A DNA stretch of 64,000 nucleotides, taken from positions 32,001 to 96,000 of IMG/VR virus record IMGVR_UViG_3300015371_000004, one strand, 5' to 3'. The DNA comes from a virus. Positions 20,627 to 22,111 of this stretch are shown here, one piece after another. Numbering within the stretch: position 1 is the stretch's first letter; each line of letters opens with the position of its first letter. Position numbers and translations under genes: made by a program. The notes under the pieces are model-generated. The model ran no database searches. It had not been told where the DNA came from and saw nothing but the letters and a program-made list of their open reading frames with translations.

Positions 20627-20832
20627 GAATCTACACGTCAGCCAATGACCCGCTCGACTTCTGCAAGCGCCACACCCCGTCCGAAAAGACCGCGGAGAAG
20701 CGGTACGGCAACGTCGGGGATGGCCCGGATGGCCGCGGCAATTGCTTCGCCTACGACGCCGAGCACCCCGACTATGATGGCGAGCACAAGTGCCGGTCGT
20801 GCGGGCGCGTGCTCGATGAGACTGACAGCTAG
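20623..20832 (+). CDS. Small Zn-binding protein
   Basis: CKRH...CRSCG; AAGGAG SD. Confidence 0.6.
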   Translation: MRIYTSANDPLDFCKRHTPSEKTAEKRYGNVGDGPDGRGNCFAYDAEHPDYDGEHKCRSCGRVLDETDS

Positions 20833-20996
20833 TTGTCGGGCGGGAAGTCCGGCGAGACCTTGACCCAGCCCTGCTGACCCAGCTTCTGATCGCGCCACTC
20901 GCGCAGCGTCACCGTCTTGGTCTCACCCGTCTCCGGGTTCTGGGCTTCGTACGACTGTTCTTTCTCGTCGGTCGGTTCCTTCGCAGGATCGGGCAT
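20829..20996 (-). CDS. 55-aa protein coupled to Zeta-like kinase 1
   Basis: TGATG overlap; MPDPAKEPTDEKEQSYEAQNPETGETKTVTLREWRDQKLGQQGWVKVSPDFPPDN. Confidence 0.55.
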   Translation of the reverse strand: MPDPAKEPTDEKEQSYEAQNPETGETKTVTLREWRDQKLGQQGWVKVSPDFPPDN

Positions 20997-22111
20997 CAGA
21001 TTCCTCCGCTGGAGAGCATACTGCCCCGGCGCTGAAAACGCCGCTGGAAATTTTCGGCGTAGCGCTGGGCCGCCACGACTTCTCGATACGACCCGGGCTC
21101 GTCCGCCCGCCAGTACACCTCGTCGAGCGCCGTGAACCCCCAGACGTGCGGCGGCGCGACCTCGGTCAGCTTCCCGTGCCGGTTGAGCACGGTCGCCTTG
21201 GCGCCGCGGTTGTCGACGACGACGTACGCGTCGAACAGGTGCTTGACCTTCTCGAACGTCCGCCGCGGGCGCGTCCCGTACTGCTTGTCGTAGTTGGATT
21301 TGATGTAGCCGATCGGCACGTACCGGCCCTTGCCGGTCTCGGCCCGCTGCTTCATGTAGCGCTGGAGCGACCGGGAGACGGACGTGTTGATGTCGACGTC
21401 GGTGAAGCGCGCCTCCACCCGGTAGCCTGCCTGCTTGAGCGACTTGATCCGGCCCATGGCGCCGCCGCCGTAGCGCGCGGTCTCATAGTCGACGCCGCCC
21501 AGATCCTTCATGGTCGAATCGAGCACCATGTTGTACTTGTTCGCCCGGCCGATCTCGATCAGCCGATCGACGATGTCGTTCGACTCGTCGTGGAGGACGC
21601 TGGCGTTGCTGCCCGTCCACTCGGGGAAAAGCGTCTTGATGTCGTCGGAATTGATGGCCAGCTTGTTCGAGTAGTCGAGGCCCGCCGCGGCCGTCGTCTT
21701 CCCCGAGGCCGTCATCCCGGACATCATCACGGCCACCGGATGCTGCTGGGGTTCGAGGGGGTTGGTGCGCGGCTTCCAGCCTGCCTTGGTGACCTCGTGG
21801 GTCAGCACCTTCTGAATGATCTCGTCGTGGAGCTTCTGGCGCTCGGTCGTGTACTCACCGGTCTTCTCGTCGAAGTACTTCGACTTGGTCCCGCGAGGGC
21901 CCCACTCGGCGAGCATCTTCCGGTTGGCCAGCTCGGCCTGCGCGATCTCCTTGGCGTACTTGGTCTCTTCCGGCGTGTCGGCGCTCTTGCGGACCTGCGC
22001 TTCGAGGTCGGTCGCGTGGCCCGGCTCGCAGTCGCCGACGCCTTTGTCGGCAAACTTCCCATCACGTGGATCGTGACAGGGGTTGAATTCGCTGAGGGGA
22101 ACGAGGTGCAT
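20996..22111 (-). CDS. Zeta-toxin-like P-loop kinase 1 with N-terminal motif
   Basis: GMTASGKTT, INSDDIK, LHDES, MVLDST; N-terminus LSEFNPCHDPRDGKFADKGVGDCE. Confidence 0.85.
   Translation of the reverse strand: MHLVPLSEFNPCHDPRDGKFADKGVGDCEPGHATDLEAQVRKSADTPEETKYAKEIAQAELANRKMLAEWGPRGTKSKYFDEKTGEYTTERQKLHDEIIQKVLTHEVTKAGWKPRTNPLEPQQHPVAVMMSGMTASGKTTAAAGLDYSNKLAINSDDIKTLFPEWTGSNASVLHDESNDIVDRLIEIGRANKYNMVLDSTMKDLGGVDYETARYGGGAMGRIKSLKQAGYRVEARFTDVDINTSVSRSLQRYMKQRAETGKGRYVPIGYIKSNYDKQYGTRPRRTFEKVKHLFDAYVVVDNRGAKATVLNRHGKLTEVAPPHVWGFTALDEVYWRADEPGSYREVVAAQRYAENFQRRFQRRGSMLSSGGI

Follow-up and report, generated by a model that had tools for sequence, protein, structure and literature searches.

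What does a zeta-type kinase do in the head-gene region of a phage, on which substrate does it act, what keeps it harmless in the producing cell, and are the hydrophobic-x-Glu/Lys joints along its chain protease cuts that free a cargo? These questions can be addressed at a locus of the virus record IMGVR_UViG_3300015371_000004, of which a stretch of 64,000 nucleotides (hereafter the window; bases 32001-96000 of the linear 115,949-bp IMG/VR record, CheckV completeness 76%) was analyzed. The window has a G+C content of ~65%, and its source is an uncultured phage of ~116 kb. Zeta-type kinases are plasmid and chromosomal toxins, and one is a plant-pathogen effector. In phages, to our knowledge, such kinases have so far been recorded just as parts of giant head-linked proteins, with no substrate or mode of regulation reported. 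The gene in question, kinase 1, corresponds by sequence to the head-linked zeta-type kinase module, here standing alone and bearing a tag and a conserved C-terminal add-on, and it is fairly probable that its product is an effector carried in the capsid and delivered to the next cell. The features that define the kinase are the following.

20996..22111, minus strand: kinase 1, 371 amino acids (aa), a P-loop kinase of the zeta/AvrRxo1 superfamily by Pfam PF06414, by profile comparison with the Protein Data Bank (PDB) and by fold comparison
21161..21916, minus strand: the kinase fold itself (residues 66-317), which aligns with zeta, PezT, and AvrRxo1 (model range 66/69 to 314/315)
21695..21718, minus strand: Walker A motif G-M-T-A-S-G-K-T, residues G132-T139, with K138 equivalent to zeta K46
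21644..21646, minus strand: catalytic Asp156, equivalent to zeta Asp67 in the I-D-N-D alignment and invariant in 55 and in 60 sequences

A preliminary description of this DNA, made from the letters alone, had called the protein a zeta-like kinase with an intact P-loop, and both statements hold. The Pfam family Zeta_toxin (PF06414) covers residues 116-310 at 1.2e-21 (77.6 bits, the cut-off being 22.3; confirmed on the genome), and a profile of 55 relatives retrieves from the PDB zeta at 7.6e-18, PezT at 1e-16, AvrRxo1 at 6e-14, and Pnkp1 at 2e-13. The AlphaFold (AF2) model has a mean predicted local distance difference test score (pLDDT) of 82, exceeding 90 over most of the core, and matches zeta (1gvn_B) with a Z of 17.0 and a root-mean-square deviation of 3.1 over 202 aligned residues, PezT (2p5t_D) with a Z of 16.4, and AvrRxo1 (4z8u_A) with a Z of 15.8 over 212 residues at 21% identity. 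Walker A is present at residues 132-139, and all ATP-binding and catalytic residues are kept: K138, D156, R251, and R263 align with zeta K46, D67, R158, and R171 (1GVN_B profile alignment) and show full or at least 90% conservation across both sets of relatives (55 and 60 sequences). Asp67 is the catalytic residue of zeta (PMC5923241). Because all four residues are retained, kinase 1 is, on sequence and model, almost certainly an active member of the zeta superfamily.

On the acceptor side, D198-S-T200-M-K202 lies opposite zeta E116-G-T118-G-R120 and D182 opposite zeta E100 in the profile alignment. The G-T-x-R acceptor (UNAG) motif of zeta is thus represented by S199-T200-M201-K202, in which the threonine is kept and the glycine and arginine are replaced; the acidic residue ahead of the motif is kept as D198. 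An N-terminal Y-T-P-E-R-x-x-L-H helix and an H-x-E-S block are common to kinase 1 and AvrRxo1 and absent from zeta and PezT; the alignment to 4Z8V_A recovers the P-E-R-x-K-L-H helix and the H-x-E-S block characteristic of AvrRxo1/XopAJ, and R91, H95, and E176 are invariant or nearly so. The only NCBIfam match of kinase 1 is to the AvrRxo1/XopAJ model NF041405, at 20.8 bits against a cut-off of 300, which falls short of membership. AvrRxo1 phosphorylates NAD at the 3′-hydroxyl and does so without a UNAG motif (PMC5087710). The likeliest class of substrate for kinase 1 would, judging by these motifs, be a nucleotide-sugar or a dinucleotide.

The same comparisons bear on the possibility that kinase 1 is a cytoplasmic, undelivered phage enzyme, a polynucleotide or nucleotide kinase acting, for example, in RNA/DNA end repair as T4 Pnk does, whose tag (see below) would serve as a common peptide for assembly or interaction and have no part in capsid loading. 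Polynucleotide kinases (PNKs) do match the model with Z values of 10-13 (C. thermocellum PNK 13, T4 Pnk 10.4), Pnkp1 is found by profile, and the case for packaging is wholly indirect. However, higher scores are reached by zeta, PezT, and AvrRxo1, whose alignments also take in the N-terminal helices, the catalytic aspartate and the D-x-T-x-K block are those of the small-molecule zeta type, and such an enzyme leaves the fusions of its relatives to portal and MuF domains hard to explain. This alternative is considered improbable.

Those fusions are part of the argument for a capsid cargo. A full scan of 1.84 billion representatives yields 1,941 kinase relatives, in many of which the kinase sits at the C-terminal end of a larger chain (600-1,300 residues). 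In a domain survey of 60 relatives of 450-1,500 residues, about 11 contain portal domains (Phage_portal_3 in six, Portal_Mu in three, other portal domains in two) and five contain Phage_Mu_F, so that portal or MuF domains together occur in ~16 of the 60. Other modules in this set include ADP-ribosyltransferases (six), pyridine-nucleotide-disulphide oxidoreductases (three), and anti-CBASS Acb1 (two), with ART-PolyVal, NUDIX, LPD1, topoisomerase IB, and others found once each. The fusions to the oxidoreductase, Acb1, and ADP-ribosyltransferases hint at nucleotide- or NAD-centered conflict functions. PHROG 16619, annotated as a minor head protein, matches both kinase 1 and its paralogue in the window, kinase 2.

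A zeta-toxin-like kinase fused to MuF in phages has been described before, with the suggestion that it weakens the wall at injection (Iyer et al. 2017, PMC5512222). The best match of kinase 1 in the phage database is a 1,500-residue protein of cyanophage P-SS2 (ORF030) that contains a related domain; ORF030 has the highest mean virion peptide count of that phage, 96.5, the table leaving unstated which part of the protein was detected (PMC2784084 Table 2). The kinase 1 gene itself lies between the two halves of an apparently split terminase gene, upstream of the genes for the portal, a weakly MuF-like protein, the protease, and the capsid. A role as virion cargo is plausible because relatives are fused to portal and MuF domains and because a related domain occurs in a P-SS2 virion protein. 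On this sequence evidence and by analogy, kinase 1 is fairly probably capsid cargo, in line with the preliminary description, which had proposed injection.

The N-terminus offers a candidate signal for loading, in two parts.

22088..22111, minus strand: leader M-H-L-V-P-L-S-E, residues 1-8, ending in hydrophobic-x-Glu and conserved in homologues
22028..22087, minus strand: tag F-N-P-C-H-D-P-x-x-G-K-F...C, residues 9-28, recurring in the window and in relatives

The pattern hydrophobic-x-Glu-[F/Y/A/S]-N-x-C-H-x-P...G-x-F is found eight times in the window, always on the minus strand, and every copy has the glutamate two residues before the asparagine. In relatives, the tag is found near the N-terminus or ahead of each module, as in one protein that reads tag-GNAT-tag-GNAT-tag-kinase (P0024) and another that consists of a kinase, three tags, and topoisomerase IB (P0012). 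The metagenome contig JACCDR010724588.1 (locus L003, 2500-3400, plus strand) encodes a ParB-like protein with a D-G-H-H-R motif whose N-terminus contains F-L-R-E-F-N-P-C-H-D-P-K-D-G-Q-F…C, and the leader pattern M-x-h-V-P-(N-S)...L-x-E is conserved both in the homologues of kinase 1 and in this protein. A ParB-like protein that opens with a kinase 1-type leader and tag shows the tag to be portable between unrelated enzymes. Low-G+C relatives have a lysine variant, hydrophobic-x-Lys-[F/Y]-N-P-N-H-D. We infer that the leader would be cleaved after E8. We found neither the tag nor the tail described next in PMC5512222 or PMC5576092, and a literature search by motif string gave nothing relevant.

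The kinase fold ends in a second hydrophobic-x-Glu sequence, behind which the chain continues.

21161..21175, minus strand: joint G313-K-L-T-E317, a candidate cleavage site where the kinase fold ends; invariant in five close homologues
20999..21160, minus strand: C-terminal tail, residues 318-371 (54 residues), consisting of a variable linker, a [YW]-x-[NR]-A-D-x-P motif, and an amphipathic helix
42236..43327, minus strand: kinase 2, a 363-aa paralogue with 29% identity to kinase 1 and two tags, with only 16 basic residues after the joint position

The tail of about 55 residues after K-L-T-E that the preliminary description found missing from kinase 2 is real: 54 residues in kinase 1 stand against 16 basic ones at the aligned position. 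Kinase 2 has a cysteine-less tag, N-H-Y-H…G-R-F, at residue 19 and a second, N-R-C-H…G-R-F, at residue 83. The four full-length homologues of kinase 1 (53-68% identity) retain the tail, with G-x-L-T-E invariant, and the same plan is present in the distant relatives P0007, P0015, and P0016, in which a variable, low-complexity linker of 10-22 residues is followed by [YW]-x-[NR]-[AG]-D-x-P and an amphipathic helix. At least eight cluster representatives have the tail, which is, on sequence, a conserved module. Most other relatives stop within a few residues of G-x-L-T.

Whether the chain continues is related to the residue at the joint. In counts that are uncorrected for phylogeny, a continuation of at least 13 residues after G-x-L-T is seen in 15 of 18 sequences with glutamate in the next position and in 6 of 25 with another residue (Fisher p 1.7e-4). 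The link is also seen in a table of joint residues anchored on a hidden Markov model. In P0015, lysine stands in the leader (V-R-K, then R-T-Y-V-R-D-R-V-G-R-F) and also at the joint (L-T-Lys), with a homologous tail behind it. Both signals would fit a single protease that reads the same residue at leader and joint. The maturation cleavage at K-L-T-E that the preliminary description had postulated is therefore suggested by the link between glutamate and extension and by the paired lysines of P0015; from the sequences, a cut at L-T-E is possible, and its chance is put at somewhat below even.

An alternative on which the same observations bear is that the tail is neither cleaved nor inhibitory, acting instead as a permanent accessory part, such as a substrate lid, an oligomerization helix, or a helix that docks to the capsid interior or the scaffold, with the small open reading frame (ORF) behind kinase 1 an unrelated mini-gene on a shared transcript. 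A conserved motif and helix are what a functional part of the mature protein would show, zeta and AvrRxo1 also extend past the shared core, and the small ORF is not conserved. A variable, low-complexity linker directly after an invariant L-T-E is less readily accommodated, as are the association of glutamate with extension, the joint change of glutamate to lysine at leader and joint in P0015, and the enrichment of small ORFs behind both kinases. A permanent tail of this kind is a possible but rather unlikely reading of the locus.

As to what the tail might do, the AF2 model places helices at 328-336 and 342-361 with low confidence (pLDDT 46-75), and searches with the tail find no PDB sequence match, only matches at the level of chance, antitoxin chains included. 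A fused copy of the 61-aa ORF behind kinase 2 was considered and discarded: the two have A-A-x-x-Y-A-E in common, but BLASTP E-values are 1.6-3.5. A zeta toxin whose antitoxin domain acts in cis is reported from E. coli, namely EzeT (Rocker and Meinhart 2015, as cited in PMC5923241). Inhibition of kinase 1 by its tail is considered unlikely.

Each kinase is followed by a small ORF, as listed here.

20829..20996, minus strand: small coupled ORF, 55 aa, predicted to form a three-stranded beta sheet; its ATG overlaps the stop of kinase 1
21002..21007, minus strand: Shine-Dalgarno sequence GGAGGA, 5 nucleotides (nt) before the ATG of the small ORF, inside the last codons of kinase 1
42042..42227, minus strand: 61-aa ORF that starts 8 nt behind kinase 2, helical in appearance from its sequence and without relation to the 55-aa ORF

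The TGATG coupling noted in the preliminary description is confirmed, the stop codon TGA of kinase 1 (20996-20998) sharing its A with the ATG of the small ORF, and the ribosome-binding site and coding-type composition agree with it. Codon-position G+C is like that of neighboring genes (0.84 at third positions, 0.41 at second positions) and unlike that of the overlapping alternative frames. The protein is acidic, with an isoelectric point of 4.45 against 9.0 for kinase 1, and a single-sequence model gives an all-beta, three-stranded sheet (pLDDT 73). It has no match in Pfam, PHROG, NCBIfam, or PADLOC and no paralogue in the window; its matches in Atlas are all sub-threshold, PDB sequences give chance matches only, antitoxin chains among them, and no fold match emerges (best Foldseek E 0.78, best VIA Z 2.8). 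Epsilon, PezA, and Arc1 are helical (PMC5923241, PMC4938570), and the small ORF is unlike them because it is predicted to be all-beta and matches none.

A link to the kinase is favored by one observation. With a crude, composition-based gene call and a spacing of −12 to +30 bases, a tightly linked, coding-like ORF of less than 100 aa follows 5 of the 47 large ORFs of the window, and both kinases are among these five (hypergeometric p ~0.009). Small genes of diverse kinds stand behind 89% of MuF toxin genes, as opposed to 25% of short MuF genes, and such pairs are regarded as toxin and immunity (PMC5576092); likewise, avrRxo1 is followed by arc1 (PMC4938570). A search of viral, genome, and metagenome collections turned up no close relative, only the tag-bearing L003, and at nine distant viral loci the genes downstream of the kinase are varied, with overlapping ORFs of 60-86 aa at three. 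As for the 61-aa ORF behind kinase 2, a 95%-identical copy is present on another 10-kb contig (P0157). It was also examined as an Arc1-like antitoxin and set aside, since E-x-x-Y-Y is present but neither Arc1 nor any antitoxin chain is matched. The idea that the 55-aa ORF is a partner of the kinase thus draws support from the tight linkage of a mini-ORF at both kinases; no likeness to a known zeta antitoxin was found. On these analogies, a role as an inhibitor of kinase 1 in the producing cell would be reasonable, though it is rated rather unlikely.

A more conventional arrangement would be a resident toxin-antitoxin or exclusion module, in which kinase 1 is a toxin of the producing cell and is not packaged, the 55-aa ORF is its antitoxin in a toxin-first order, and the pair serves addiction, superinfection exclusion, or the timing of cell death. 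Translational coupling with a strong ribosome-binding site, a small linked ORF at both kinases, the AvrRxo1-type motifs with the weak NCBIfam XopAJ/AvrRxo1 match, and the precedent of an Arc1 gene downstream of avrRxo1 (PMC4938570) all accord with it. It is at odds with a small ORF that lacks detectable homologues and is predicted to be all-beta, in contrast to the helical epsilon, PezA, and Arc1, with the lack of any PADLOC match, and with a kinase that has a cargo tag, sits among head genes, and has portal- and MuF-fused relatives. This arrangement is therefore given only a small chance.

The account preferred here, a capsid-carried effector, can be put as a sequence of steps. Kinase 1 would be made from a packed same-strand gene string in the packaging and head region, loaded into the procapsid by means of its N-terminal leader and tag, and ejected along with the DNA. 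Its reaction in the next host would be the ATP-dependent phosphorylation of some nucleotide-type metabolite, either a uridine diphosphate (UDP)-sugar or an NAD-like dinucleotide, in the service of takeover or counter-defense. The head protease may cut after the glutamate of hydrophobic-x-Glu, both before the tag and at G-K-L-T-E, where the cut would free the 54-residue tail. In the producing cell, the 55-aa acidic protein might restrain the kinase, which is the weakest part of the model. A stricter version, in which kinase 1 is a zymogen licensed by the capsid, has the head protease removing cargo leaders together with a cis-inhibitory tail at G-x-L-T-Glu and the 55-aa protein left behind as a trans inhibitor. 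If it were true, the toxin would be active only in the matured capsid, and virion maturation would strip off a cis-antitoxin, an arrangement that sequence would reveal in many phages; this version is improbable.

Several points weigh against the delivered-effector account. Packaging is deduced from relatives and from gene position, and in the source phage kinase 1 is a stand-alone gene of 371 aa, unfused to portal or MuF. At the joint, the Glu/extension count ignores shared descent, as stated above, and the conservation of G-x-L-T is in part structural, because the motif is kept in relatives that end right there. Lysine pairs with lysine also in P0010 and P0092, but their C-terminus or alignment is doubtful, so that the pairing amounts to one clean and two weak cases. 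Within the superfamily, extra residues at the C-terminus are nothing unusual, given that zeta itself has ~70 residues beyond the shared core and AvrRxo1 also extends. The family of the head protease, and with it any specificity for glutamate, is without assignment by Pfam, NCBIfam, or PDB. No homologue of the small ORF was found in 5.8 billion proteins by a word-based search, which may miss distant relatives, whereas four full-length homologues of the kinase exist. Finally, a role in lysogen immunity is without support because the 76%-complete record contains no integrase or resolvase.

The surroundings of kinase 1 add two more features to which the account refers.

22116..23724, minus strand: two tagged genes upstream of kinase 1, 369 aa and 175 aa, in the same gene string
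12064..13659, minus strand: head maturation protease with a scaffold-like acidic/coiled-coil C-terminal half, candidate processing enzyme (phrog_15531, 8.7e-15)

The tightly packed minus-strand string runs from the ATPase-like half of terminase through the two tagged genes to kinase 1 and the small ORF, and beyond this island the same strand continues with the nuclease half of terminase, the portal, the weakly MuF-like gene, a glycosyltransferase, the protease-scaffold gene, and the capsid gene. No terminator-like site is seen on that strand in the string around kinase 1. The MuF-like gene (15312-16250; weak match, E 0.025) is separate from kinase 1. The large subunit of terminase is apparently split into two 292-aa halves, 18239-19117 and 23727-24605, both on the minus strand and 4.6 kb apart. 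One half has a Walker A-like G-S-G-S-G-K-G and an M-D-E-A-A-F box, the other matches PHROGs of the TerL nuclease, and the N-terminal half, which has no family match, is assigned by motifs only. Besides three tagged genes and the small ORF, the 4.6-kb island between them contains a plus-strand cassette and a zinc-ribbon ORF. The cassette (20136-20832) encodes DUF2958, DUF7336, and a Cys-rich 69-aa ORF and converges on the small ORF (20829-20996, minus strand); its last stop codon overlaps that of the small ORF within CTAG, a palindrome at 20829-20832, and no terminator-like site separates the two.

In the head module, the sole match of the protease is phrog_15531, with no assignment in Pfam, NCBIfam, or PDB. 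Its scaffold-like half ends in S-R-F-R-E-S-F-A-N-G-E-A-G-P-D-D-F, which resembles the F-R-E-S-N-D-C-H tag region in degenerate form. In the major capsid protein (Mu gpT-like; 10420-11469, minus strand), K-L-R-E and R-L-R-E occur in the first 32 residues, before the Pfam-matched body, and these are possible maturation sites of the hydrophobic-x-Glu type; as clues to cleavage, they and the F-R-E-S of the protease-scaffold protein are only anecdotes. A group-1 glycosyltransferase (14155-15315, minus strand; phrog_7162, 3.9e-38) is encoded within the head module, between the MuF-like gene and the head protease.

That phages possess head-linked zeta-type kinase domains was already known (Iyer et al. 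2017). The new elements are the tail as a conserved module, the association of a glutamate after G-x-L-T with continuation of the chain (with L-T-Lys at the joint of one relative that has a Lys-type leader), and the presence of a linked small ORF at both kinases. The locus is a small, separable version of the phage zeta kinase, with tag, kinase, joint, tail, and mini-gene laid out in turn. If the rule at the joint were true, injected effectors and their pro-peptides could be read directly from the sequences of uncultured phages.

Among known systems, the internal proteins and Alt of phage T4 have capsid-targeting sequences that the prohead protease removes after L/I-x-Glu. The likeness lies in the short leader, which ends in hydrophobic-x-Glu and is shared by several proteins that are otherwise unrelated and whose genes lie close to head genes. 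T4 Alt is an enzyme cargo injected with the DNA (PMC5512222), and a similar role is proposed for kinase 1. Here, however, a conserved motif of 20 residues follows the glutamate and would stay on the cargo, and this motif also punctuates polyproteins.

The epsilon/zeta and PezAT systems (PDB 1GVN, 3Q8X, 2P5T) provide the best structural match, with Z values of 16-17, and have the Walker A lysine, the catalytic aspartate, and the two arginines in common with kinase 1. They differ from it in the strict G-T-x-R, for which kinase 1 has S-T-M-K, in that kinase 1 lies in a phage head region, and in their upstream helical antitoxin gene, in place of which kinase 1 has the gene for the 369-aa tagged protein. 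A precedent for a zeta kinase silenced by its own chain, as proposed for the tail of kinase 1, is EzeT. Its inhibitory domain is reportedly N-terminal and epsilon-like, whereas the extension of kinase 1 is C-terminal and without detectable similarity to any solved chain.

AvrRxo1/XopAJ (PDB 4Z8Q-4Z8V; PMC5087710, PMC4938570) aligns over the longest stretch and with the highest identity (21%, Z 15.8), and its partner gene, arc1, lies downstream, as the 55-aa ORF does here. AvrRxo1 is a delivered effector, and we likewise infer delivery for kinase 1. The acceptor block is D-S-T-M-K in kinase 1 and D-K-R-L-S in AvrRxo1, and the small ORF is predicted to be beta rather than helical and is without the KExFD...ExxYY motif of Arc1 (PMC4938570).

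Also close are the polyvalent, MuF-fused, and portal-fused modules (Iyer et al. 2017, PMC5512222; Jamet et al. 2017, PMC5576092), which belong to the same kinase clade. Kinase 1 resembles the MuF toxin genes in its head-gene neighborhood, in the small ORF behind it, and in the ART, Acb1, NUDIX, and LPD modules of its relatives. It differs from the MuF- and portal-fused forms in being a separate gene, in which a short leader and tag replace the fused domain and a conserved 54-aa module is added at the C-terminus.

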